Virus record (IMG/VR): IMGVR_UViG_3300013121_000005
Location: 1 to 64,000 of that record
Source of the DNA: a virus
Lineage: Duplodnaviria > Caudoviricetes
Reading direction: 5' to 3' (one strand)
Length of the DNA stretch: 64,000 nt
Shown here: piece after piece, positions 1,831 to 45,927 of the stretch
Position numbering within the stretch: the stretch's first letter is position 1
Layout: every line of letters starts with the position of its first letter
Notes under the pieces: model-generated
The model's input: only the letters and a program-made list of their open reading frames with translations
What the model was told of the DNA's origin: nothing
Databases searched by the model: none
Program-made: the position numbers and the translations under genes

Positions 1831-3495
1831 ATGGCTAGTAAGAGTTTCTTCAGTCAAAAGGGCACGACTGTTCCGACGGCAACGGCAACAAACTACTCGG
1901 GTAAGCCAGCCTACAAGCTCTCGTCGAAGTACGCACTGGCGCAACTCGCCGTGACCGGCTGCTTCAACCAGACCTTCTACACGAGTGGCGAGGACCAGCT
2001 CCAGCAGGTTCTTGCACTCGCGAGGGAGTGTGAGCCCGAGTTCGTGGCGAAAGTGGCGATTTACGCCCAAGAGTCCGGCTTCATGAAGGATATGCCTGCG
2101 GCTCTCATGGTCTACCTGACCACGGTAGACTTGGCTGTCGCTCGGAAGGCATTCCCGAGGGTCATCCGCAACGGTAAGATGCTCCGTAACTTCGCTCAGA
2201 TCCTTCGGTCCGGAGCGTTTGGGCGTCACAACCTAAGCGCGAAGGGAATCCAAAAGCTGATCCAGGGGTGGTTCGATGCCCGGACCGAGGACGAACTCTT
2301 CCGAATGTCGGTTGGAAACAACCCATCTTTCGGGGACGTCATCAAGATGGCCCGTGTTACTCCGAAAAGCAAGGAGAGGTCGGCTCTTTACGCTTACTTC
2401 ATCGGGAAGACGGCAGCTCGATTCGGGACGGAAGTCTTCCCGATCGCAGATGTCCTACCTGAGCGGGTGAAGGCGTACGAAGAGTTCCTCAAGAATCCGC
2501 ACCCAACGGAGGAGATCCCGGATGTGCCTCTAGAGATGGCGCTGGGGCTTCAGCTCTCCATTGAGGGATGGAGGACGGTTGCTCGTAGGGCAAGCTGGTT
2601 CCAGACGTTCCGGACGATGAACACCTTTGCTAGACACGGGGTTCTCTCGGATCCGGAAATGGTCGAGTTCCTCTCTAATCGCCTCAGGAACCCAGACTTG
2701 ATCCGCAAGGCTCAAGTCTTCCCGTACCAAATCCTCATGGCCTACAAGGCTATCGTGGAAGGTCAGACCTCTTTCGGTAAGAAGGGGGCTAACGATGGCG
2801 ACAACTATGGCGATCTAGTCAAGATCGCAGGGGCTCTCCAGGATGCCTTGGAGTTTTCTTGTGAAAACATCCCGACTTTGGAAGGTCAGGTAGTCATTTG
2901 TCCGGACGTGTCCGGATCGATGTCGTCTCCTGTCACGGGTAATCGGATCAACCCGAAGACCGGCAAGGTGGAGAGGCATACAACGAAGGTTTCTTGCGTT
3001 GAGGTAGCGGGGCTGATGAGTGCAGCCATTTTGCGGAAAAACTCGCAGGCTCGGGTCATCCCCTTCGATACGGAAGCTTACTCCAGCTTCCCCCTCAACC
3101 CAAGGGATAGTATCCTAACGAATGCCCAAAAGTTGGGTGCACTCAGAGGAGGGGGTACAGATTGCTCCTGTCCGCTCAAGTACCTCAACAAGGCGAGGGC
3201 CAAGGCTGACGTGGTGATCTTCATCTCGGACTACGAGTCTTGGGGCGGGGCCTACGGGGCATCTCGTGGGACTCCCATGATGGAGGAGTGGGGTAAGTTC
3301 CACTCCCGTAACCCGGGAGCGAAGTTGATCTGCATCGATCTCACCCCCCATGGGACGACGCAGACCCCGAACACGCCTAACATCCTACATGTAGGTGGGT
3401 TCTCCGACAAGGTGTTCGAGGTTGTCACGAGCTTCGCTAATGGCAAGCCCGATAAGGCTCACTGGACGAAGGTCATTGAAGACGTCGAGCTGTAA
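1831..3495 (+). CDS. rsr: Ro60/Rsr-like TROVE-domain RNA-binding protein with C-terminal VWA domain
   Basis: ALAQLAVTGCFNQTFY, GFMKDMPA, NGKMLRNF, PYQIL, MIDAS DVSGSM, GGTDCS, ISDYESW, GGFSD; GGAGG RBS. Confidence 0.93.
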   Translation: MASKSFFSQKGTTVPTATATNYSGKPAYKLSSKYALAQLAVTGCFNQTFYTSGEDQLQQVLALARECEPEFVAKVAIYAQESGFMKDMPAALMVYLTTVDLAVARKAFPRVIRNGKMLRNFAQILRSGAFGRHNLSAKGIQKLIQGWFDARTEDELFRMSVGNNPSFGDVIKMARVTPKSKERSALYAYFIGKTAARFGTEVFPIADVLPERVKAYEEFLKNPHPTEEIPDVPLEMALGLQLSIEGWRTVARRASWFQTFRTMNTFARHGVLSDPEMVEFLSNRLRNPDLIRKAQVFPYQILMAYKAIVEGQTSFGKKGANDGDNYGDLVKIAGALQDALEFSCENIPTLEGQVVICPDVSGSMSSPVTGNRINPKTGKVERHTTKVSCVEVAGLMSAAILRKNSQARVIPFDTEAYSSFPLNPRDSILTNAQKLGALRGGGTDCSCPLKYLNKARAKADVVIFISDYESWGGAYGASRGTPMMEEWGKFHSRNPGAKLICIDLTPHGTTQTPNTPNILHVGGFSDKVFEVVTSFANGKPDKAHWTKVIEDVEL

Positions 3496-9308: not shown

Positions 9309-9484
9309 GTCTTGAGCTTACACCAAACTTTGAAGGCGTTGGAAGGGAATCTTGGTCGGCCGTTTGCCAGGTAGCGAGCCGCGTAAGGTGTAGGACACCC
9401 ATCGTCCGTGGAAGGTAGCTAACCCCCCACCCACACCGATTGAAGTTTGGTAATCTTGTAATCAGGGCTAAGAGGTTAACCTCC

Positions 9485-11578
9485 ATGTCAGTCCCTCTTG
9501 TGTGCCGAGTTGCAAAACGGTTCTCCATTCAAGCTGGTGGGGTGGACCTTCGTACCTTGAAGATTACGAGCGAAAACCTGGAGCAAGTGCTCAACGATCT
9601 CATCGCTGGGATCGAAGACCTTGAAGCGGCGGAAGAGAAGCTCGGGCTAAGCTTGCGTAACATGACGCAACTTATGAAGGAATCGGTCCATAACGACGAC
9701 ATCTACCACAATGGGGAAGATGTGTTGACCCATATTGGGTGGGTCATGGATGATGTGCACACGTTGTCGGAGCACATGACAGCCGACAAAAAGGCTCTCT
9801 TGAAGTTGACTGCGCTCTGTCATGACTTGGGTAAGGCATATACATACAGGTATGACCCTGTAAAGAAAAAACACACCTTCCATGGGCATGCGGAGAAGTC
9901 TGTAGAGATTGCCAAGGTTTTCCTGGCTCGCCACAAGGAAGCCCTTGGTGAGCTGTACCAGGATGTGTTGGATTTCACTCGACTACATGATGTGTTCTAC
10001 GCTCTTGCCTACGAGCGAACTCAGGTAAAAGGTACCAAGTACGTTCGTCGTTTGATGAATGAGGCTATCTACCAAAAAGGTCTTCTTCGCGACCTGTTTG
10101 AGTTTGCCAGGGCAGATTCGTACCGAGCAAAGGCTCATGCACAAAAGCTCAAGGAAACGGAAGCCCTCTTTGAGGACCTCGCCGCTGAAGAGCAGTCAGC
10201 AAAGGAGGCTGAGCTTCTTGAGGTACAACGGAAGGCTTTCATCAAGTCCAAGCTGCCAGAAGTCCAGGCATACCTAGAGCAAGTAGCGCCTGATGCCGCA
10301 ACTCTCCTGCCCAATATGGTTGAAGTTAATCAACTACTTGGGCGTACCCGAAGGTTTGACGTCCTCAAGAAGATTAGGAGTATGCTGACATTCCAGGATG
10401 AACGATTCAAGCTGGCGAGTGCGGCCCATGCTCGTTCCGTGGCTCTGATGAAGTTCCTGTCTCGTGCGACCCAAGCACTAGGAATTGCAAAGCATGTCTA
10501 CGTCGTCGGGGGAGCTGTCCGGAATTGGATGCTCAACCAACCGATCAAGGATATCGATGTAGTGATCGATTCGATTGGGGCGAAGAAGGACTCCGAGTGG
10601 CTGGCAAAGCGTCTTAGGGAAGCCATCCCGGCTGGGACCAACCTGACCACAAATCAGTACGGCGTTGCTATCCTCACGGTGAAAGACTCGTGGGTGCTCG
10701 ACGGCCATGATATGCAAGGTGAGGTTATCGAGATTGCTAACGCCCGTAAGGAAAGCTACGGGGGCGAAGAAGGTAAAGGGTACAAACCGCATCTGGTTGA
10801 ACCTGCTACCATCGAGGAAGACCTAAGCCGACGAGAGTTTACGTTCAACACCTTGCTGTGGCGCTTACTTGACTTGGAGCATGGCCCTGACCGTGCTGAG
10901 GTGCTCGACCTGTTGGGGGTAGGTAGGCAGCACCTAGAACAGAAGGAATTGCGGACACCCGTAGACCCCGACAAGACCTTCTCGGATGACCCGACCAGAA
11001 TGCTTCGGGCAATCAAGTTTACGGCTAAGTACAACTTCAAGATTCCCCCGGACGTTGTGGGTAGTATCCGACGCAATGCTCCAAAACTCAAGCAAATGCC
11101 TTGGGATGCTGTACGTAAGATCCTGGTAGAGGATATCCTTGAAGGACCTGCCCCACGGGAGAGCGTGAAGCTACTGAAGCACTTAGGGTTGAGCGATACG
11201 ATCGGGGAAATGCTGCACGAAACTCAAGGGTTCGCTGCCGCTTTGGCTCGCAGTCTGTCTGAAAAAGAGACCCACCTGGTTCTAGACTTGCTTGACCTTG
11301 GGTGGACCATGAAAACCCCCGTGTCCTTCTTGGGGTCAACTGGATTGGTCCGGCTTCGCGAGATTCTTCTCAGCAGTGCGGAAGACCCAGGGTTTGCTGC
11401 TGCCTTCGTACAAGCACTTACAAAGCCCCCTTTGGATCAGCCTAAACTGTTCGTAGAGCTGAATATCCCGCTAAAAGAGCGGGGATCTTTAGTTCAGACA
11501 GCCCGTAAGTTGCTACTTAGCGACCCTCAACTTGCATTGAGGGGGCTGGAAGAAGCTGTGCGAAGAGAGCTGTCCTAA
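9485..11578 (+). CDS. cca: HD-domain + CCA-adding/poly(A) polymerase nucleotidyltransferase fusion
   Basis: N-terminal H...HDLGK...HA..S HD domain; C-terminal VGGAVRN, DIDV, DLSRREFTFN, FSDDPTRMLRAIKF. Confidence 0.85.
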   Translation: MSVPLVCRVAKRFSIQAGGVDLRTLKITSENLEQVLNDLIAGIEDLEAAEEKLGLSLRNMTQLMKESVHNDDIYHNGEDVLTHIGWVMDDVHTLSEHMTADKKALLKLTALCHDLGKAYTYRYDPVKKKHTFHGHAEKSVEIAKVFLARHKEALGELYQDVLDFTRLHDVFYALAYERTQVKGTKYVRRLMNEAIYQKGLLRDLFEFARADSYRAKAHAQKLKETEALFEDLAAEEQSAKEAELLEVQRKAFIKSKLPEVQAYLEQVAPDAATLLPNMVEVNQLLGRTRRFDVLKKIRSMLTFQDERFKLASAAHARSVALMKFLSRATQALGIAKHVYVVGGAVRNWMLNQPIKDIDVVIDSIGAKKDSEWLAKRLREAIPAGTNLTTNQYGVAILTVKDSWVLDGHDMQGEVIEIANARKESYGGEEGKGYKPHLVEPATIEEDLSRREFTFNTLLWRLLDLEHGPDRAEVLDLLGVGRQHLEQKELRTPVDPDKTFSDDPTRMLRAIKFTAKYNFKIPPDVVGSIRRNAPKLKQMPWDAVRKILVEDILEGPAPRESVKLLKHLGLSDTIGEMLHETQGFAAALARSLSEKETHLVLDLLDLGWTMKTPVSFLGSTGLVRLREILLSSAEDPGFAAAFVQALTKPPLDQPKLFVELNIPLKERGSLVQTARKLLLSDPQLALRGLEEAVRRELS

Positions 11579-25265: not shown

Positions 25266-25337
25266 GGTCCCGTCTGCTAAAGGTAGGCAACCAGATTCTC
25301 AATCTGGGAATGGTGGGTTCAATTCCCCCCGGGATCA
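25266..25337 (+). tRNA. tRNA-Glu(CTC)
   Basis: Cloverleaf. Confidence 0.85.
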
Positions 25338-25339
25338 CT

Positions 25340-25402
25340 AGATCGAATGCTACACAGGACTACATCCGATTAATGCATGTCTTGTGCACTACTTGTCGAT
25401 CT
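25340..25402 (+). ncRNA. Y RNA-like #1 (minimal)
   Basis: AGATC-GAATG-N11-TACA...CTTGTC-GATCT. Confidence 0.8.
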
Positions 25403-25405
25403 TTT

Positions 25406-25477
25406 GCTCCCTTAGACTACTGGCTAGGTCGGCGCCCTTTCAAGGCGTAGGAACGGGATCGATACCCGTAGGGAGTA
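25406..25477 (+). tRNA. tRNA-Glu(TTC)
   Basis: Cloverleaf, T-loop ATCGATA. Confidence 0.85.
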
Positions 25478-25969: not shown

Positions 25970-26042
25970 GCCAAAGTAGCTCAAATGGTAGAGCAGTGGA
26001 CTGAAAATCCGCGTGTAGTTGGTTCGATCCCAACCTTTGGCA
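25970..26042 (+). tRNA. tRNA-Phe(GAA)
   Basis: Cloverleaf. Confidence 0.92.
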
Positions 26043-26043
26043 C

Positions 26044-26185
26044 TGCGATGAATGCTTGGAGGACTACATCGACCTGAGGCTTACGAGCCTGGTTCCTTGC
26101 GGGGGCAGATCCCGCCTTGACGGCGCAAGCCTTCAAGACCGGCACTTAGAAGGGAACCTGCTGTCCTCTACTTCTTGTCGTCGCA
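26044..26185 (+). ncRNA. Y RNA-like #2 (non-tRNA cargo)
   Basis: TGCGAT-GAATG-N10-TACA...CTTGTC-GTCGCA. Confidence 0.8.
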
Positions 26186-26189
26186 AACT

Positions 26190-26327
26190 TTCGTGGTGAA
26201 TGTCGAATGGACTACATGCAATTCAAGCCGGTAACGTTGGTTCAAATCCAACCTCCTGCTCCAACTTATGCGGGGGTCGTCTAGAGGTAGGACACCGTAG
26301 GGTCTTTTCACTTCTTGTCATCACGGA
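26190..26327 (+). ncRNA. yrlA: Y RNA #3, YrlA-type (permuted tRNA mimic)
   Basis: Y stem enclosing T-arm, loop-closed acceptor stem, then D-arm. Confidence 0.85.
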
Positions 26328-26332
26328 ATTTT

Positions 26333-26352
26333 CGGGCGTATAGCCTAGTGGT
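26333..26352 (+). pseudogene. 5' tRNA fragment upstream of an HNH gene
   Basis: CGGGCGTATAGCCTAGTGGT, then breaks off. Confidence 0.45.
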
Positions 26353-26378
26353 TCTGATAATCTTTCGATGGGTTTATC

Positions 26379-26795
26379 ATGACTGTGAAGGATCAAAAAT
26401 ACTGCCCACGGTGCGATACCACCAAGCCTGAGAGCCAGTTTCACAAGCGGGGGGCGTTCCTGATGGGGTACTGCAAGCCCTGCCAGTGTTCGTACGTGGT
26501 CCAGACCAAGAAGAAGCTGTTGGCTCATTTGCGAGGCATCGTCCGGTCAGCCAAGGACAACCCATGTTCCGACTGCGGGGAGCGACACCCGTACTGGGCG
26601 ATGGACTTCGACCACCGAGACCCCGCTCTCAAGAAGTTTGAGATCGGCCAGCTCGGAAGAATTTGTCCCTCTGAGGAGCGTCTCAGAGGAGAGCTTGCAA
26701 AGTGCGATCTCGTATGCGCCCTTTGCCACCGCTACCGAACCAACGGGCAGCGGAGATCACTGGCACGTAGTTCAACGGTTAGAACGCACGTCTGA
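26379..26795 (+). CDS. HNH endonuclease (paralog 2)
   Basis: CSDCGE...MDFDH...KCDLVCALCH; stop lies inside tRNA-Ile. Confidence 0.85.
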   Translation: MTVKDQKYCPRCDTTKPESQFHKRGAFLMGYCKPCQCSYVVQTKKKLLAHLRGIVRSAKDNPCSDCGERHPYWAMDFDHRDPALKKFEIGQLGRICPSEERLRGELAKCDLVCALCHRYRTNGQRRSLARSSTVRTHV

Positions 26796-26837
26796 TAAGC
26801 GTGAGGTTTGGAGGTTCGATTCCTCTCGTGCCAACCA
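26761..26837 (+). tRNA. tRNA-Ile(GAT)
   Basis: Cloverleaf, CCA. Confidence 0.9.
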
Positions 26838-26897
26838 GGTGTTGTTCAGCGGGTCCTCGGGGAGCTTGGAGCCCCGGTGATCACTGAAAAATACCTG

Positions 26898-27038
26898 AAT
26901 ACCGAATGTCAAAGGGACTACAGCCCCCGCCATGAGCCCCGGAGTCGTCTCCGAGGTTCATGGGGGGCTTCGGTTGTGGTCGCCTTCAAAAAGCGAATCG
27001 CCTCCGAGCGAAAGTCTCTGAGGTTCCTTGTCGGTATT
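26898..27038 (+). ncRNA. Y RNA-like #4 (non-tRNA cargo)
   Basis: AATACC-GAATG-N10-TACA...CTTGTC-GGTATT. Confidence 0.8.
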
Positions 27039-27040
27039 TT

Positions 27041-27111
27041 TGGGGAATCGTCTAAAGGCAGGACGCGGGATTTTGATTCCCGCTATCTAGGTTCGACTCC
27101 TAGTTCCCCAG
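27041..27111 (+). tRNA. tRNA-Gln(TTG)
   Basis: Cloverleaf. Confidence 0.9.
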
Positions 27112-27117
27112 CTACAT

Positions 27118-27191
27118 AGAGGTAACAGTCATGGTGACGGCGGAGCCTCCAAAACTCTAGCGAGCGGGTTCGATTCCTGCTACCTCTGCCA
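27118..27191 (+). tRNA. tRNA-Trp(CCA)
   Basis: CT-CCA-AA loop, CCA end. Confidence 0.8.
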
Positions 27192-27192
27192 C

Positions 27193-27268
27193 GGGTCTCA
27201 AGCAATTGTGGTCAATGCGCTGGTCTGAAAAGCCAGACAACTCGGTTCGATCCCGAGGGGGCCCACCA
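27193..27268 (+). tRNA. tRNA-Phe(GAA)
   Basis: Cloverleaf, CCA. Confidence 0.88.
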
Positions 27269-27426
27269 CGACGAATGCTGTCGAGGACTACACCGCACAT
27301 AACGGGGTGGTCGCGAGGTTCGACTCCTCGCTCCCGTAGCCAAGCCTTCAATTTGTTGAGGGCTTGGCTACGGGATAGCTCAGTGGTAGAGCACCTAAAA
27401 GTTGTCTTCGCGATCCTTGTCGTCGT
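27268..27426 (+). ncRNA. yrlA: Y RNA #5, YrlA-type with extended acceptor stem
   Basis: ACGAC-GAATG...GGTTCGACTCC...long hairpin...TAGCTCAGTGGTAGAGC...CTTGTC-GTCGT. Confidence 0.88.
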
Positions 27427-27429
27427 AAT

Positions 27430-27506
27430 CGGGGTGTGGCTCAATCTGGTAGAGCATTCCGTTCGGGACGGAAAGGTTGGACGTTCAAATCGTCTCACCC
27501 CGACCA
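27430..27506 (+). tRNA. tRNA-Pro(CGG)
   Basis: Cloverleaf, CCA. Confidence 0.9.
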
Positions 27507-27743
27507 GGGAAAGAGCAGAACATCGGGTAGCTCCGGTGTTTGTCGGGCGGTGAGTGCTCACCGACAGCTTGGACCCTGACCACTTTCAATGCCTCTGGAG
27601 CCAGATGGTCTGGCGAGGCAAAGGACCTCCTTGGAGGAAAGGCCCCTGAGACCCCGGGGGAGCTTGGAAGAGGGGCTTGCTCTCCCGCTCCGTGAGGCCG
27701 CCAAGGGCCGTCGGACGGGAGGGCGGCCCCTAGGGGTCACTTT

Positions 27744-27826
27744 ATCACTGTGGAGAAATTGGAAGCCTCGCAGCAGCCCCGCTGTGCTCCTTTGGGGGCG
27801 TCCAGGTTCGAGTCCTGGCGGTGACA
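27744..27826 (+). ncRNA. Leu-type tRNA-like RNA without a canonical anticodon loop
   Basis: Leu-like D- and V-arms, 6-nt loop AGCCCC. Confidence 0.65.
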
Positions 27827-27881
27827 CTTTTTTCGGCTGGTGGTTGTGTAATTGGTGTATCGTTCGTTGATCGTTCGTTGA

Positions 27882-27966
27882 GTTCAGATGGCGGAATGGC
27901 AGACGCAGTGGATTTAAAATCCACCGCTCCTCGTGGGCGTGAAGGGTTCGAGTCCCTCTCTGAACA
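27882..27966 (+). tRNA. tRNA-Leu(TAA)
   Basis: Class II cloverleaf. Confidence 0.9.
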
Positions 27967-28136
27967 CAAAGAGGTGTGCGCACACCTCTTAGAGCCGAAA
28001 AGTCCCAATTAGGAGCTTGGCTGCAAACTTGAGGTCACTTGGTAGTGTGGAGGGCTTAGATCCTCCTCTTTGGTTCGATCCCAGTAAGGGCCTCAAATTT
28101 TTGCTGAGGTGTGTGCAACACGTTTTGGCTCGATTT

Positions 28137-28223
28137 GCTCAGATGGCGGAACTAGGCAGACGCGGCGGCTTCAAACTCCGTTGTCCTTGTGGCGTGAGGG
28201 TTCGATTCCCTCTCTGAGCACCA
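28137..28223 (+). tRNA. tRNA-Leu(CAA)
   Basis: Class II cloverleaf, CCA. Confidence 0.85.
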
Positions 28224-28227
28224 ACTA

Positions 28228-28336
28228 GATCGAATGCATGAAGGGTTTACATCCTGCCGATTAGGAAGGCGTGGTTCGATTCCACCCTAAACCAAAGGGG
28301 GCTGGTGCCTCCGTAACTCTTCACTACTTGTCGATC
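28228..28336 (+). ncRNA. Y RNA-like #6 (T-arm remnant)
   Basis: GATC-GAATG-N11-TACA...GGTTCGATTCC...CTTGTC-GATC. Confidence 0.8.
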
Positions 28337-28347
28337 AAGTTGAATCT

Positions 28348-28422
28348 CGGGGTGTAGCTTAGCCTGGCAAAAGTGCTCGTCTGGGGGACGAGAGATCACA
28401 GGTTCAAATCCTGTCATCCCGA
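28348..28422 (+). tRNA. tRNA-Pro(GGG)
   Basis: Cloverleaf. Confidence 0.9.
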
Positions 28423-28428
28423 CTGTAT

Positions 28429-28500
28429 GGGCTGGTAGTTCAGTGGTAGAATGCTTCTTTGACACGGAAGAGATCGGCGGTTCGACCCCGCCCCAGCTCA
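28429..28500 (+). tRNA. tRNA-Val(GAC)
   Basis: Cloverleaf. Confidence 0.9.
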
Positions 28501-28502
28501 CT

Positions 28503-28722
28503 GTCTCGAATGCTGATTAGGAGTACATATCCATAAAGGCCCTAAGGTAGCGATGTTCCCGCGAGGGACTAGCGACGGCACCAATCCCAGACCCCAAGCG
28601 GTAATACGCCGGGTCAGAGACTCTATGAGTCAAAGGTGCGGGACGAGCGGTGGCCATCCCACAAGGAACCACAATGCGTCGGCGGAGCGAAAGCTCCTTC
28701 TCTTAATCGAACTTGTCGAGAT
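28503..28722 (+). ncRNA. Y RNA-like #7 (largest, ~170-nt non-tRNA cargo)
   Basis: GTCTC-GAATG-N11-TACA...CTTGTC-GAGAT. Confidence 0.8.
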
Positions 28723-28730
28723 TTTTCAAT

Positions 28731-28812
28731 GCGCAAATGGCGGAATGGCAGACGCACTAGCTTGAGGTGCTAGCGGTTAACAACCATGGGGGTTCAATTC
28801 CCCCTTTGCGCA
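28731..28812 (+). tRNA. tRNA-Leu(GAG)
   Basis: Class II cloverleaf. Confidence 0.9.
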
Positions 28813-28813
28813 C

Positions 28814-28877
28814 TACTACTGAATGCAGTTGAGAGTACATTTCGGTACATGCCTCTCAACTATTCTTGTCAGTGGTA
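28814..28877 (+). ncRNA. Y RNA-like #8 (minimal)
   Basis: TACTACT-GAATG-N10-TACA...CTTGTC-AGTGGTA. Confidence 0.8.
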
Positions 28878-28965: not shown

Positions 28966-29115
28966 TCACCGTGAATGATGCTTTGGACTACATGTAAAAT
29001 TCAGTCTTTGAGGGTTCGAGTCCCTCTCTGGCTCTTAGGAGTCAGGTGGTGGAATTGGCATACACACTGAAAGCCGAAAGGCATGCGTCCTTGGGCAAAA
29101 AACTTGTCATGGTGA
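28966..29115 (+). ncRNA. yrlA: Y RNA #9, YrlA-type (Leu-like D-loop)
   Basis: T-arm GAGGGTTCGAGTCCCTC, closed acceptor, D-arm GTGGAATTGGCATACAC inside the Y stem. Confidence 0.85.
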
Positions 29116-30058: not shown

Positions 30059-30145
30059 GGGTGGGTTGTCTTTTCCGGTCTTGTCATCGCTCTTTCGGGG
30101 GTCGATGAATGTTGGTGAGGACTACATAAGCAATCGGTACCACCC
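30059..30145 (+). ncRNA. Y RNA-like #10, circularly permuted
   Basis: CTTGTC-ATCG precedes CGAT-GAATG-N11-TACA, joined by a TTCG hairpin. Confidence 0.72.
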
Positions 30146-30179
30146 TGGGTCGGCCTTCGGGCCGACCCCCGATTCCTAT

Positions 30180-30252
30180 GGTGAGTATCGCCTTCTGGAG
30201 AGGGCGCCTGGTTGTGGCCCAGGTAAGGCGGGTTCGATCCCCGTTGCTCACC
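30180..30252 (+). tRNA. tRNA-His(GTG)
   Basis: G-1/C73, cloverleaf. Confidence 0.9.
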
Positions 30253-30254
30253 CC

Positions 30255-30381
30255 GCAGTAAATGCTGATAAGAGTACAACCCAATCATAAGTGCGAGTTC
30301 AAGTCCCGCTCAGTACGTAAGTGCTGATAGCTCAAGTGGTAGAGCATTGATCCCAAACCTCTTGTCGTCTCTTGTTACTGC
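30255..30381 (+). ncRNA. yrlA: Y RNA #11, YrlA-type
   Basis: GCAGT-AAATG...CTTGTT-ACTGC (compensatory A-U pair); T-arm, GTAA-closed acceptor, D-arm. Confidence 0.82.
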
Positions 30382-31842: not shown

Positions 31843-31984
31843 CTGGGGTCAAATGCTTGTGGGGTCTACATTCAAGGTAGAAAACAGACTCCGCTGCCAC
31901 TTGTTGGCCCTAATCTGCGTCTCCAGCACAACGGAGGGCGACACCTGCCAAAGTGGTGTGGCCGCTGGGGAGAGTCCCGCCAAT

Positions 31985-34188: not shown

Positions 34189-34293
34189 TGAAGTGAATGC
34201 AGGTAGGGGGTACATTTGGTTCGATCCCGAGATCCCGGGCTCTATCCGGGATCGCCTATTGGGGGCAAACTCTTTGCTCCACTTGTCGCTTCA
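34189..34293 (+). ncRNA. Y RNA-like #13
   Basis: TGAAGT-GAATG-N11-TACA...CTTGTC-GCTTCA. Confidence 0.78.
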
Positions 34294-36004: not shown

Positions 36005-36082
36005 GTGCTGAATGTCTGTTAGGACTACATCGTCGAATTGATACTCGATCTAATGATGTCTTAGCAACTTCCTTGTCAGCAC
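36005..36082 (+). ncRNA. Y RNA-like #14 (minimal)
   Basis: GTGCT-GAATG-N11-TACA...CTTGTC-AGCAC. Confidence 0.8.
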
Positions 36083-39271: not shown

Positions 39272-39614
39272 GGGGCTGCCAGGTTTCGACACAGGAAGGA
39301 AGGTAAAATCTGCGTGCGAGCGGCCCTCGATCCGCTCTGACCAATCGAGGCGAATACGACTGCCAACGATAACGGCACTGCTTTCGCGGCTGCGGCCTGA
39401 AAGCCGATCTCTAGCTGGGTCGTCCTAGCGGCGAAGAGATCGTCACCCACCAGGGCTGGCTGAACCTCCGGGTTTCCGGGAGATAGGCGAGTTCAACAGG
39501 AAAACTAGGTCTCGGCCGAATCCGAGAGCCCAGCCGACGGGGTTACTTCGGCTACGCACGTAGAAGATTTTCCCAGATGTCTTGTGGACAGGGGTTCGAT
39601 TCCCCTCAGCTCCA
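39272..39614 (+). ncRNA. ssrA: tmRNA; tag ANDNGTAFAAAA
   Basis: 5' GGGGCTG..GGTTTCGAC, tag ORF 39362-39400, 3' GGGGTTCGATTCCCCTCAGCTCCA. Confidence 0.95.
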
Positions 39615-39631
39615 CCCCTTGAAAGAGTAGT

Positions 39632-40553: not shown

Positions 40554-40739
40554 GTCCCAAAGGTTTTGTGTTGTGGTGTAGACTCTATTGGGAACCGCGC
40601 TTAGGCTTGGGTTCTTTTTCGACGAGCCGCACCTTTGGGTTTGGGCGTAGTCGCGGACGTATTTGGAAACGTTGAGGGATTTGAGAGATTTGTCCATCTC
40701 TGCATCCCTAACTCAGACCCCACGTTCACGGTGAAAGCT

Positions 40740-42197
40740 ATGGAAATCAAACCCAAGTTTACGTTCGAGTCCGTCCGTTGTGACCAGAGCAATGACCTTC
40801 ATTTGGTTGTTGAGCTTACGGCCCCTAAGAGCGACTGGCAGGTCAATCGTCCGCCGCTCTGTATTGTTCCAGTTCTCGATATTTCTGGTTCGATGGCAGG
40901 TCCGAAGCTCGCCTACGCAAAGCAGTCAATTCTTAAGCTGATTGAGCACCTGTCGTCGGACGACTACTTCGGGATCGTCAGTTTCTCGTCTGCTGCCCGG
41001 GTCGATGCTGTCCCACGGAAGATGACTCCTGAGGTAAAGGAGTCGTTGAGGGTCCTAGTTAACAATTTTCAGACAGAGGGTGCGACCAACTTCTCTGGGG
41101 GGATGCTCCTTGGGCTCAAGACCGCTAATGAGATGGACCTCCCCGAGTCTACCATCGTTCGGGTCATCACGTTTACGGATGGTCAGCCGACCCATGGGGT
41201 GACTGATCCTAAGGGCCTTTGTGACCTCTTGGAAAAGCAGGTAGGGCGAGCGAGTGTTTCTGCCTTTGGTTACGGTTCGGACGCTAACCAAACTCTCTTG
41301 AGTGACTTGGCAACCAAGGGCAAAGGTAACTATGCCTTCGTGCAAGAGCCTGATGCAGCTCTTGCCGCTTTCGGTAAGGAATTGGGGGGTCTTCTGAGCA
41401 TGTATGCTCAGAATATTCGCGTCGACCTGACACCTCGTAATGGGCACCAGATCATGGAGGTCCTTACGGATGCTGATGTGGAGGAGGAGACTACTGGGGA
41501 GGTCGAGGTTAGGCTTCCGCAGATTCTTAGTGAGGAAACTACTAATGTCGTTGTTGCGGTGAGGCTTAGCGAGCAGAAGCAAGCAGGTCCTCGTCAGGTC
41601 AATGTGATTGACGTGAAGCTCCGCTACCAGGTCATCGATCAGGATGGGAAGCTCACGGAGAAGACTGTGGAGACCAAGGCGAAGGTCCAATTCGTCAAGG
41701 CTGGTGACGAGCAGAAGACCCCCACCAAGGAGGTTGACGAGATCGTTGCCAGGGCTCAGCTCGTGAAGGTGCAGATTGAAGCGGAGGCCCAGGCTAAGCA
41801 GGGTAACTTCTCCGCAGTCACTGAGGCTTTCAATGGATTTAAAGCCTCAGTTAAGACTCGTGGTCTGGGCCTATTGGCTGAGATTGCAAACCACGTTGGG
41901 GGGTACTACCAACCTCAACAGTATGCAGGGTCTGCTGGTAATCGGGTAGGGCTCCGTCGGGCTATGACTCGTGGAGTAGGTACTTCAGGTCTAGCCCTAG
42001 AAGATCAGGTTGTTCTTAGCTCCTGTAGTTTTTCGCTTGCCAATGAAGCTCAGGAAATGACTTCTCAAGCATTTTCTGCCGCTGGGGCTCCTCCAGTAGC
42101 TCCTCCTCCAGTGGAGGGTCCTGTAACAGGGGCATCGACTCCTCCCGTTGTTTTGGGGAGGAACTTGAGCAAGCGTAGGAGTTCTCGTTGGGCTTAG
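40740..42197 (+). CDS. VWA-domain protein (YfbK-like)
   Basis: LDISGSM, GATN, FTDGQPT, FGYG. Confidence 0.88.
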   Translation: MEIKPKFTFESVRCDQSNDLHLVVELTAPKSDWQVNRPPLCIVPVLDISGSMAGPKLAYAKQSILKLIEHLSSDDYFGIVSFSSAARVDAVPRKMTPEVKESLRVLVNNFQTEGATNFSGGMLLGLKTANEMDLPESTIVRVITFTDGQPTHGVTDPKGLCDLLEKQVGRASVSAFGYGSDANQTLLSDLATKGKGNYAFVQEPDAALAAFGKELGGLLSMYAQNIRVDLTPRNGHQIMEVLTDADVEEETTGEVEVRLPQILSEETTNVVVAVRLSEQKQAGPRQVNVIDVKLRYQVIDQDGKLTEKTVETKAKVQFVKAGDEQKTPTKEVDEIVARAQLVKVQIEAEAQAKQGNFSAVTEAFNGFKASVKTRGLGLLAEIANHVGGYYQPQQYAGSAGNRVGLRRAMTRGVGTSGLALEDQVVLSSCSFSLANEAQEMTSQAFSAAGAPPVAPPPVEGPVTGASTPPVVLGRNLSKRRSSRWA

Positions 42198-44295: not shown

Positions 44296-45927
44296 ATGGC
44301 TATCAAACAAGGGACTGATATCCGGTCGAAGCTCCAAGCTGGCGTTGGTAAGCTTGCAGATGCTGTAACCATAACGCTCGGCCCTCGGGGTCGTAACGTC
44401 TGCATTGAAAAGGCTTTTGGGGCGCCCCTCATCACCAAAGATGGAGTGAGTGTCGCTAAGGAAATTGAGTTGTCCGACCCTTGGGAGAACATGGGTGCAC
44501 GGCTGGTTCGAGAGGTTTCCTCAAAGACTTCTGACAATGCTGGGGATGGTACAACAACCGCGACAGTTCTTTCGCGGAGTATGTTTGACCAAGGTATGAA
44601 GTTCATCTCTGCTGGTTACGCCCCAGTCCAACTTAAGCGAGGGATGGACAAGGCGTGTAGGCTTTTGGAGGAGGCAATCGTTGATCAGTCGCTTCCAGTT
44701 AGGACTCAAGAGGATATTGCGGGGGTGGCTACCATCAGTGCTAATGGGGATGAGGAGATTGGGAGGATCATAGCTGAAGCGGTAGCGAAGGTGGGTAAGG
44801 ATGGGATCGTTAATATCGAGGAGGGTAAAACAACCTCCATCTCGATAGAAGCCTCTGATGGTATGCAGATTGAGCGGGGCTGGCTCAGCCCCGCATTCAA
44901 GATGGACTCTGCAACCTACTCTTCTACGCTGGATAACCCCTATGTCTTCGTTACCGATATGGTGATTAGTGACATCAGGCCATTCCTTCCTGTCTTGGAG
45001 AAGTTCGTTGAGTGGGGTCGACCGGTACTTTGGGTTGCTGCTGACTTCGAGGGGGAAGCTCTAGCCGTTCTGTGCAAGAATTTCGGAGCAAAGACGCTAA
45101 TTTCGCAGCTAGTCAAAGCCCCGTCTTTTGGGCATCAGCAGACGGAGGTGCTCAAGGACCTTGCAGTGCTGACAGGGGCAACCTTCTTGTCCAAGGAGAT
45201 GGGGGCAACCTTTGAGAGTGTGGACATCTTGATGTTCGGTTCAGCTCGTTTGGTTACGGTTACGGATCGAACGACTACCATTGTGGATGGGGCTGGTTCG
45301 GAAGACAGTCTGACCGCACGTATCTCGCAAATTAAAGCGGAGATTGAACGTACTGGCAGTGAGTTCGATCGAGAGCGTCTTCAAGAGCGGCTAGGTAAGC
45401 TGCTGGGGGGAGTATGCTCGATTAAAGTGGGAGCCCCTACAGAATTGGCTCTCAAAGAGATCAAGGCCAGGATGGAAGATGCTCTGTATGCGACCAGAGC
45501 AGCTATTGACGAGGGGGTGGTACCTGGAGGGGGTATGTGTCTCGTGCGGGCGTCTTGGGCTGTTCGGGATCGTTGGAAGAGGCTACAGCAGCTCCCCCTC
45601 TTGGAAACTCCTGACGAGGAAGTGGGGTTCGGTATTGTTTTGGATGCTTGTAGGGCACCATTTGATGCCATCCTGAGTAATGCCGGAGTGAAGAACCCTG
45701 ATAGGTACTTGGATAGGTTGGCTGAGGATGATGCAGAGTTCAGTGGGGTTGATGCTCGGTTGTTGGAGATTGTAGACCTCAAAGAGGCTGGTATTTTGGA
45801 CCCTACCAAGGTTGTTCGGACAGCTCTGTCAAATGCGGTTTCCTTGACTGGAACCCTCCTTACCACTGAGGTAGCTATCCGAAAGGTCCCTAGCCCTGGT
45901 CGCGACGAAGGGGTGGCCCGTGGCTGA
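44296..45927 (+). CDS. groEL: chaperonin GroEL
   Basis: TLGPRGRNV, ITKDGVSVA, GDGTTTAT, GVVPGGG. Confidence 0.97.
   Translation: MAIKQGTDIRSKLQAGVGKLADAVTITLGPRGRNVCIEKAFGAPLITKDGVSVAKEIELSDPWENMGARLVREVSSKTSDNAGDGTTTATVLSRSMFDQGMKFISAGYAPVQLKRGMDKACRLLEEAIVDQSLPVRTQEDIAGVATISANGDEEIGRIIAEAVAKVGKDGIVNIEEGKTTSISIEASDGMQIERGWLSPAFKMDSATYSSTLDNPYVFVTDMVISDIRPFLPVLEKFVEWGRPVLWVAADFEGEALAVLCKNFGAKTLISQLVKAPSFGHQQTEVLKDLAVLTGATFLSKEMGATFESVDILMFGSARLVTVTDRTTTIVDGAGSEDSLTARISQIKAEIERTGSEFDRERLQERLGKLLGGVCSIKVGAPTELALKEIKARMEDALYATRAAIDEGVVPGGGMCLVRASWAVRDRWKRLQQLPLLETPDEEVGFGIVLDACRAPFDAILSNAGVKNPDRYLDRLAEDDAEFSGVDARLLEIVDLKEAGILDPTKVVRTALSNAVSLTGTLLTTEVAIRKVPSPGRDEGVARG

Follow-up and report, generated by a model that had tools for sequence, protein, structure and literature searches.

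Y RNA-like modules with conserved non-tRNA domains, one of them resembling the H69–H71 region of 23S rRNA, in the tRNA array of a jumbo phage

The analysed window, 64,000 nt in length, forms the start of a jumbo-phage record of 363 kb from IMG/VR (IMGVR_UViG_3300013121_000005; completeness estimate 76%), and its 23.3–38 kb region carries 47 transfer RNA (tRNA) genes, every one on the + strand, with a transfer-messenger RNA (tmRNA) gene next to them. Among these tRNAs lies an array of about 14 modules sharing the stem of YrlA-type Y RNAs, and three of them, designated #2, #4 and #7, enclose in this stem large conserved domains (cargos) that are structured and not tRNA-like; the cargo of #7 contains a stretch resembling the H69–H71 region of 23S ribosomal RNA (rRNA). 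The same genome encodes a Ro60 ortholog. We favour, with moderate confidence, the view that #2, #4 and #7 are Y RNAs bound by Ro60 and carry other effector or decoy modules where YrlA has its tRNA-like one, that the resulting ribonucleoprotein (RNP) tethers or titrates host factors, and that the partner of #7 recognises the H69–H71 junction.

The 5′ motif of the modules, GAATG-N6-12-..TACA, occurs in 10 copies on the + strand against 0.24 expected from shuffled sequences, which corresponds to a 40-fold enrichment. With a module defined as the GAATG..TACA motif plus a 3′ CTTGTC and a complementary terminal helix, about 14 copies were found between positions 25340 and 36082, all on the + strand, while no convincing copy was present in the 363-kb genome outside 25.3–36.1 kb. 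A covariance model built from the minimal modules (R1) found the short copies and lost those with large cargos even when run unfiltered, and a structure-aware regular expression implemented in Python was therefore adopted. The common stem is of the YrlA type (5′ CGAAUG..GGACUACA / 3′ CUUGUCG). In single-sequence folds it comprises a terminal helix of 5–9 bp ending in the G-C pair between GAAUG and CUUGUC, an internal loop AAUGC / N3-5 CUUGU, a second helix of 8–10 bp, and UACA, after which comes an insert varying from 17 to 176 nt across the array. The elements GAAUG, GGA(C/G)UACA and CUUGUC are invariant or nearly so from module to module and align to the YrlA consensus; printed as CgaAUGCuu.ggGgaaCUAc ... 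cUuGucG, this consensus gives, for both strands of the stem, the sequence that all modules conserve. Apart from #2, #4 and #7, the modules belong to minimal hairpin or tRNA-like types, and one of these sister modules (27268-27429) matched the whole Rfam YrlA model RF02553 with 49.2 bits (E = 1.6e-10; gathering score 69). The word UACAU following the second helix, near-invariant in most modules, is also the word cut by MazF-bs/EndoA-type toxins (table in PMC5408214); this match is probably a coincidence, since CUAC is part of the YrlA consensus.

The Ro60 ortholog (Rsr/TROVE plus vWA) matches the Pfam family vWA_Ro60 with 64.8 bits, its TROVE match being weak, and it is alignable over the full length with Deinococcus radiodurans Rsr (PDB 2nvo; phmmer E = 2.8e-19). 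Xenopus and human Ro60 were also matched by phmmer, as was, distantly, the TROVE protein of Thermus phage phiLo (E = 1.8e-9). The complete giant phages G001 (512 kb), G002 (407 kb) and G004 (435 kb) encode Ro60 proteins 47–53% identical to that of the window and carry arrays of the same type of modules, while two complete giant phages (G006 and G007) and one 68%-complete record, which share with the window an HNH-like open reading frame (ORF) described below, have neither Ro60 nor modules. Among the complete phage genomes examined, modules were seen only in the Ro60-encoding ones. BLAST did not find #2 and #4 in G003 and G004, or #4 in G001. A strict minimal-module pattern, CGAATG..GGASTACA..CTTGTCG, was matched in 30 viral contigs of IMG/VR (L121-L148; 8–435 kb), many of them far below giant-phage size, so that this type of stem extends well beyond the clade analysed in this work.

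A paired-end stem with an internal loop, a conserved sequence of the Ro60-binding type and a Ro60 ortholog in the genome are among the features by which Y RNAs are recognised, and these three were found for #2, #4 and #7. By their stem and genomic company, these elements may be classified as Y RNAs of the YrlA lineage, in line with the original prediction made from the window's sequence. They lie outside the Rfam families YrlA and YrlB, since they have none of the tRNA-like parts that define YrlA (a T arm, a D arm and an acceptor-like stem) and score below the family threshold; their multi-helix cargos of 90–176 nt also differ from YrlB (RF02565), the sole match to which in the array is located at 25335-25407 (24 bits), outside the three modules. 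In the proposed scheme, #2, #4 and #7 would be paralogous members of one family of phage Y RNAs, the phage's own Ro60 would bind them at the YrlA-type stem into which their 5′ and 3′ ends pair, and the tRNA-like domain of YrlA would have been swapped for a different conserved, folded effector module in each of them.

The three cargo-bearing copies lie where they had been predicted (Table 1), and the expected sizes were close to those observed, namely 92–98 nt enclosed in #2, about 90 nt in #4 and 173–176 nt in #7. The hairpins GGC-GCAA-GCC, CCATGAGCC...GGTTCATGG and GGAGC-GAAA-GCTCC are present as described. Neither ARAGORN nor the Rfam tRNA clan calls anything inside the cargos, whose hairpin loops are GGCAGAU, GNRA or UACG rather than T or D loops, and BLAST of each module against the relatives matches only its own ortholog, which agrees with the expectation of no mutual similarity. 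The suggested comparison with Rfam gave no family at E ≤ 10 for any cargo, with introns, riboswitches, large subunit (LSU) rRNA and large phage non-coding RNAs included, and no known catalytic or ligand-binding family was matched, with nothing seen beyond chance-level matches of the miRNA type. The folding z-scores of the cargos alone were −1.8 for #2, −5.1 for #4 and −2.2 for #7. Orthologs were collected from Ro60- and HNH-linked loci, by pattern scans of IMG/VR and JGI metagenomes, and by BLAST within the fetched loci. All three cargos proved to be conserved and structured in homologous phages; they are thus real non-tRNA domains, as effector-binding modules should be.

For #2, which starts 0–1 nt 3′ of tRNA-Phe (25970-26043), eight distinct orthologs were aligned (alignment A8). 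The RNAalifold structure contains 39 pairs with 93.2% of cells paired, and 19 pairs show compensatory changes, compared with 9.4 ± 1.9 in column shuffles (none of 500 reached 19) and 4–11 for slid partners. Within the Y stem, helix 1 is paired in 100% and helix 2 in 96% of cases, with three compensatory pairs each. In this fold, hairpin 1 is followed by helix P1, which closes a three-way junction and encloses a 5-bp hairpin with the invariant 7-nt loop GGCAGAU together with a variable hairpin; the junction also contains the conserved single strand GGCACUUAGA at 26141-26150 (ortholog consensus GGYAYYUAGA). At the P1 column pair 53/116 of the alignment AU, UA, GC, CG and GU all occur, and P1 was found independently by minimum free energy (MFE) folding in three of the four orthologs tested.

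Module #4, ending 1 nt before tRNA-Gln (27041-27112), has four orthologs (alignment A9), and the alignment supports 44 pairs, eight of them with compensatory changes. In its stem, the G-C pair of GAAUG/CUUGUC is replaced by A-U in two relatives (CAAAUG/CUUGUUGG). The cargo contains a 44-nt irregular hairpin, which is very stable (z −5.1) and nearly invariant in sequence among the relatives (alignments A6 and A9).

Module #7 lies between two tRNAs, with its start 1 nt from tRNA-Val (28429-28501) and its end 8 nt from tRNA-Leu (28731-28813). The alignment of its five distinct orthologs (A7) comprises 48 pairs with 94.0% paired, of which 15 are compensatory, while the column shuffles gave 3.9 ± 1.6 (0 of 500 reached the observed number) and slid controls 1–3; helix 1 of the Y stem is 97% paired. 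The cargo is closed by a 3-bp helix, P0. After a junction segment, which is conserved, GCACC/GGUGC (GAGCC/GGCUC in G001) forms a long-range helix enclosing two hairpins, one with insertions of 25–70 nt; then come a helix ACG/CGU (GCG/CGC in G004) enclosing a further hairpin, and a GNRA hairpin. Junction strands, among them GUAGCGAUG, GGGACUAGCGAYGG, CAGAGACUC, CGGGRCGARCGG and AAUGYG, are invariant or nearly so. P0 (columns 39-41/266-268 of A7) is 100% paired; G002 has A-U where others have G-C, G001 has U.G for C-G, and the helix is also present in the single-sequence MFE structure. A pattern describing the #7 core had no matches among 185,579 reference prokaryote genomes, so that, as far as sampled, the core is a phage feature. 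The strand CAGAGACUC resembles the R element of group I introns; a group I intron reading of #7 was considered and received no Rfam support.

Taken together, the alignments make it barely conceivable that the cargos are decaying, functionless copies of tRNA-like YrlA genes. The array does contain many paralogs, minimal stem-only copies among them; however, each cargo type is kept in 4–8 phages with compensatory base-pair changes, the sequence of #4 is near-invariant, and no trace of a T or D arm is left in the cargos.

A feature of #7 overlooked by the original prediction is its likeness to 23S rRNA. When compared with E. coli 16S, 23S and 5S rRNAs, every #7 ortholog tested (four, then all five) had its best match at the same site of 23S. 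The G001 ortholog is identical to E. coli 23S positions 1916-1936 over 21 of 21 nt (AUAACGGUCCUAAGGUAGCGA; z 9.4 against dinucleotide shuffles, which were used for all these scores), the metagenome ortholog L092 matches positions 1914-1942 at 26 of 29 nt (z 8.4), and the window copy has 23 identities in 27 nt (z 5.4). With softer gap costs, the first 53–55 nt of each #7 cargo are colinear with positions 1911/1916 to 1964/1974, with 36–43 identities. No such common site was found for the orthologs of #2 and #4 in 16S, 23S or 5S; three of four #2 orthologs had their best 5S match around positions 46-59 (AGAAG), with noise-level scores.

The likeness extends to structure. According to the consensus structure of Rfam RF02541 placed on E. 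coli rrlB, the 23S site comprises the 3′ strand of H69 and a mini-hairpin with a single pair, C1925-UAA-G1929; GUAGC comes next, unpaired, and then G1935, which closes onto C1962 around H71, with UGCACGAAU-GGCG after it. The #7 cargo presents, in the same order, AUAA, (A/C)GGYC, C-UAA-G, GUAGCG, a short GNRA hairpin in place of H71, and CUAGCGAYGGC, and the invariant bases of this stretch are GUAGCGAUG / GGGACUAGCGA. In G002 the C..G of the mini-hairpin, equivalent to C1925-G1929, is changed to U..A, a compensatory replacement. The letters corresponding to the H69 3′ strand pair in P0 with GGC(C) at the 3′ end of the cargo, and these are the letters of the H69 5′ strand, G1906-G1907-C1908(-C1909); the pairs equivalent to P0 in 23S are G1906-C1924, G1907.U1923 and C1908-G1922, and G001 has the native G.U. 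Since both letters and pairs of P0 match the H69 base, the latter is re-formed in #7 by a 5′ strand that the opposite end of the cargo provides. The 23S likeness of #7 is a local copy of sequence and structure only, and it represents the most conserved part of the module in five diverged phages.

The orientation of this stretch bears on another proposal made at the outset, that the cargos are antisense guides; as such they would take Ro60 and a nuclease to host rRNA or mRNA or to phage transcripts. The conserved single strands, such as GGCAYUUAGA in #2, would suit a guide; however, the rRNA-like part of #7 is in sense orientation, so that #7 is better described as a mimic than as a guide. Neither the phage genome nor the E. 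coli rRNAs showed complementarity beyond chance: across the 363 kb of the former, exact complementary runs do not exceed 13 nt (E 0.36–0.72), sense matches being as frequent, and antisense scores to E. coli 16S, 23S and 5S were 14–23, no higher than the best of shuffled #7 sequences (mean about 22). We regard antisense guides as very improbable.

One could also suppose that the 23S-like stretch is a relic of captured host rDNA, for example from an intron or homing-endonuclease hotspot near position 1923, which now acts as an ordinary structural part with no mimicry. Such an origin would fit the limited length of the likeness, about 50 nt, and the HNH-like ORFs within the array, and the identical 21-mer coincides with what is presumably the classic rDNA homing site of I-CeuI. 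Against it, no other part of #7 is conserved as well as this stretch in the five phages, which have diverged to only 47–53% identity in Ro60, compensatory changes have occurred at pairs present in real 23S, and no intron family was matched, which makes a mere relic rather unlikely in our opinion.

In the interpretation that we prefer, the cargo in the Ro60 RNP would tether or titrate a host factor through the surface it displays, and the surface of #7 would be an imitation of the 23S H69–H71 junction, analogous to the tRNA mimicry of YrlA. Because this surface would imitate the junction, the partner of #7 most likely recognises this part of LSU rRNA. Candidates include ribosome assembly or splitting factors (assembly and splitting GTPases, RRF), modification enzymes, the 30S interface, and an rRNA-cleaving toxin of the MazF type acting at helix/loop 70.

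A more far-reaching model can be offered only tentatively. In #7, the Y stem stands at the place of the H69 loop, and the next helix starts at UGGC, which in 23S opens the 3′ strand of H67. Module #7 could thus be a circularly permuted miniature of the 23S H67–H71 junction mounted on the Ro60-binding stem in place of the H69 loop, which would parallel YrlA seen as a permuted tRNA grafted at the anticodon stem, and the whole array could be a set of Ro60-displayed imitations of tRNA and rRNA. We hold the probability of this full model low, since there is no likeness to rRNA sequence past the first 55 nt. If it were true, #2 and #4 would imitate partners not yet recognised, and the host factors titrated or redirected by the Ro60-displayed mimics could be, for instance, defence nucleases that cleave rRNA or tRNA, GTPases of ribosome assembly or splitting, or the 30S interface.

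As to biogenesis, the modules would be transcribed within the polycistronic tRNA array and freed by tRNA end-processing, their ends being set by 3′ maturation of the upstream tRNA and by RNase P at the next one; such release is suggested by the start of #2, the end of #4 and both ends of #7 lying 0–8 nt from tRNAs. D. radiodurans Yrn2 is likewise co-transcribed with tRNA and cut from the polycistron (PMC4201824). The stem could alternatively be a generic clamp or processing cassette guarding unrelated small RNAs (aptamers, small ribozymes or regulators) cut from the tRNA transcript, in which case the cargos would act independently and Ro60 would be at most a stabiliser. One stem type with very different inserts of 17 to 176 nt, and the combination in #7 of conserved junction nucleotides with variable peripheral hairpins bearing insertions of 25–70 nt, a pattern of autonomous functional RNAs, speak in favour of this possibility, and among the roles that Chen et al. 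(2014) considered for the tRNA-like module is protection from nucleases (PMC4201824). Nevertheless, a generic cassette seems unlikely, given that the stem sequence itself, beyond its pairing, is conserved and fits the YrlA consensus, that modules occur only in those complete phage genomes examined which encode Ro60, and that no known ribozyme or riboswitch family matches the cargos.

Several observations weigh against Ro60-bound effector modules and an rRNA mimic among them. As regards family membership, #2 scores only 14.5 bits with the YrlA model RF02553 (gathering score 69), and #4 and #7 have no match at E ≤ 10; the Ro60 gene is 23–27 kb away from the three modules and does not neighbour them. 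The G002 ortholog of #7 is weakly 23S-like (z 0.7), the rRNA likeness covers only about 50 of 173 nt, with no consistent rRNA site beyond the first 55 nt, and the LSU model RF02541 has no match at E ≤ 10 on 28495-28730. There are few orthologs per module, kinship among the sequences inflates the shuffle tests, and for two of the three modules the consensus structure was tested on the very alignment that had yielded it. Genes of the RtcB, RNase PH/PNPase, RumA/TrmA and RluD types were not found in the 76%-complete phage record; a host-derived partner is therefore expected, in agreement with the phiLo Ro60-Yrl complex, which binds host PNPase (PMC12135203). Finally, MazF-mt3 and MazF-mt6 cut helix/loop 70 in free 50S subunits (PMC5408214), and a decoy for such toxins is weakened by the fact that their cleavage word UUCCU is not conserved in #7, which has UUCCC or UGCCCC; these two toxins are accordingly not favoured as partners.

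Comparison with known systems places the phage modules closest to YrlA, which mimics tRNA (PMC4201824). They share with it the stem consensus CGAAUGC..GGNACUAC / CUUGUCG on both strands, a Ro60 ortholog in the genome, and a modular plan combining the Ro60-binding stem with a second domain imitating an RNA of the translation apparatus. However, the second domains of the phage RNAs are three unrelated folds, of which one is rRNA-like, and about 14 copies lie within a tRNA array, whereas YrlA occurs as one or two copies beside rsr. With Yrn1 and Yrn2 of D. radiodurans and the RYPER machine of Ro60, Y RNA and PNPase they would share the role of a Y RNA as a tether between Ro60 and an effector, but the phage stem is YrlA-like rather than Yrn-like, and a search of the phage record revealed no PNPase-type gene. 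In Thermus phage phiLo, too, a phage Ro60 is combined with phage Y-like RNAs: the protein binds Yrl1 and Yrl2 as well as PNPase of the host (PMC12135203), and hijacking of a host factor as counter-defence has been proposed for this system. In phiLo two small Yrl RNAs are encoded beside the gene, in contrast to the 14-member array with large diversified cargos found here, and the two Ro60 proteins are only distantly related. In relation to 23S domain IV (RF02541), #7 has equivalents of C1925-G1929, of the H69 basal pairs and of a hairpin at the H71 position, while it is no rRNA gene: it corresponds to about 50 nt, H71 is shortened to a GNRA hairpin, and the H69 5′ strand comes from the 3′ end of the cargo, giving a permuted topology. 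One survey of jumbo phages goes no further than mentioning that some of them have a TROVE protein and a tRNA-like partner for it. The literature searched describes phage YrlA genes (2014) and the two phiLo Yrl RNAs (2025), and contains no diversified Y RNA arrays and no rRNA-like Y RNA domain.

The coordinates of the modules and other features are listed in Table 1.

Table 1. Positions of the Y RNA-like modules, their parts and associated genes in the window
Feature	Position	Strand	Remarks
Y RNA module #2	26044-26185	+	Two stem helices separated by internal loop AAUGC/CUUGU, then UACA and a three-way-junction cargo
Junction core of #2	26091-26158	+	Helix P1: 26091-26098 with 26151-26158 (A8 columns 51-58/111-118)
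Y RNA module #4	26897-27039	+	About 90 nt enclosed
Long irregular hairpin of #4	26924-26967	+	CCCCC-G-CCAUGAGCC..GGUUCAUGG-GGGGG
Y RNA module #7	28503-28722	+	Largest cargo of the array
23S rRNA look-alike in #7	28533-28582	+	E. coli 1916 to about 1975
GGC strand of P0	28681-28683	+	Pairs with G28539-C28541, closes the #7 core
Other array modules (a)	25340-25402, 26189-26328, 27268-27426, 28228-28336, 28814-28877	+	
Other array modules (b)	28966-29115, 30255-30381, 31844-31912, 34189-34293, 36005-36082	+	
Ro60 (Rsr/TROVE + vWA) ortholog	1831-3495	+	554 aa, full-length
CCA-adding/poly(A) polymerase with HD domain	9440-11578		Upstream of the array

Some other parts of the array deserve mention. 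Around tRNA-His (30181-30254), 5′ Y-stem motifs at 30104 and 30255 are interleaved with two tandem 3′ strands, CTTGTCGTC and then CTTGTTACTGC; this region (30104-30381) could be a nested or alternatively pairing Y module enclosing a real tRNA. About 240 nt of GC-rich, hairpin-dense sequence at 27507-27830 end in an 84-nt tRNA-like element (27744-27827; tRNA-Arg ccg), called by ARAGORN alone and not by the Rfam tRNA model. No Rfam family was matched in 27500-27840 at E ≤ 5, permissive thresholds gave nothing meaningful there, and a weak homolog of the stretch is present in a close relative (L092:3765-3891). In the G002 array, ARAGORN predicts a tRNA with an 8-nt anticodon loop (L089:11948-12021; anticodon ctgg), which may be quadruplet-reading or frameshift-suppressor-like.

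The array also includes an ORF encoding a 138-aa protein (26379-26795, + strand) that looks HNH-like by eye, with a DH..D motif as well as CxxC pairs. IMG/VR contains 148 relatives of it, a large share of them from giant phages, and there is no Pfam match at E ≤ 0.01; the ORF probably encodes a mobile endonuclease. Around the array there are accessory genes of translation and RNA metabolism (9440-11578, 39272-39617, 40635-42197 and 44296-45927), namely CCA-adding/poly(A) polymerase-HD, tmRNA (114 bits), a vWA protein and a GroEL-type chaperonin. No viral relatives were found for a protein upstream of the array, and megablast of the array region against GenBank phages gave no match.

The second modules of known bacterial and phage Y RNAs are either tRNA-like (YrlA, Yrn1) or simple hairpins (YrlB, Yrn2), and few of their effectors have been identified. 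Here, three more conserved module types have been found on the same stem, and one of them is, in the literature searched, the first case of a Y RNA domain copying rRNA. The rRNA-like domain narrows the range of candidate partners and makes the question of what bacterial-type Ro60 RNPs recognise testable. These data suggest that, besides their sets of tRNAs, giant phages employ whole arrays of RNA mimics displayed on Ro60, possibly as a form of counter-defence at the RNA level.

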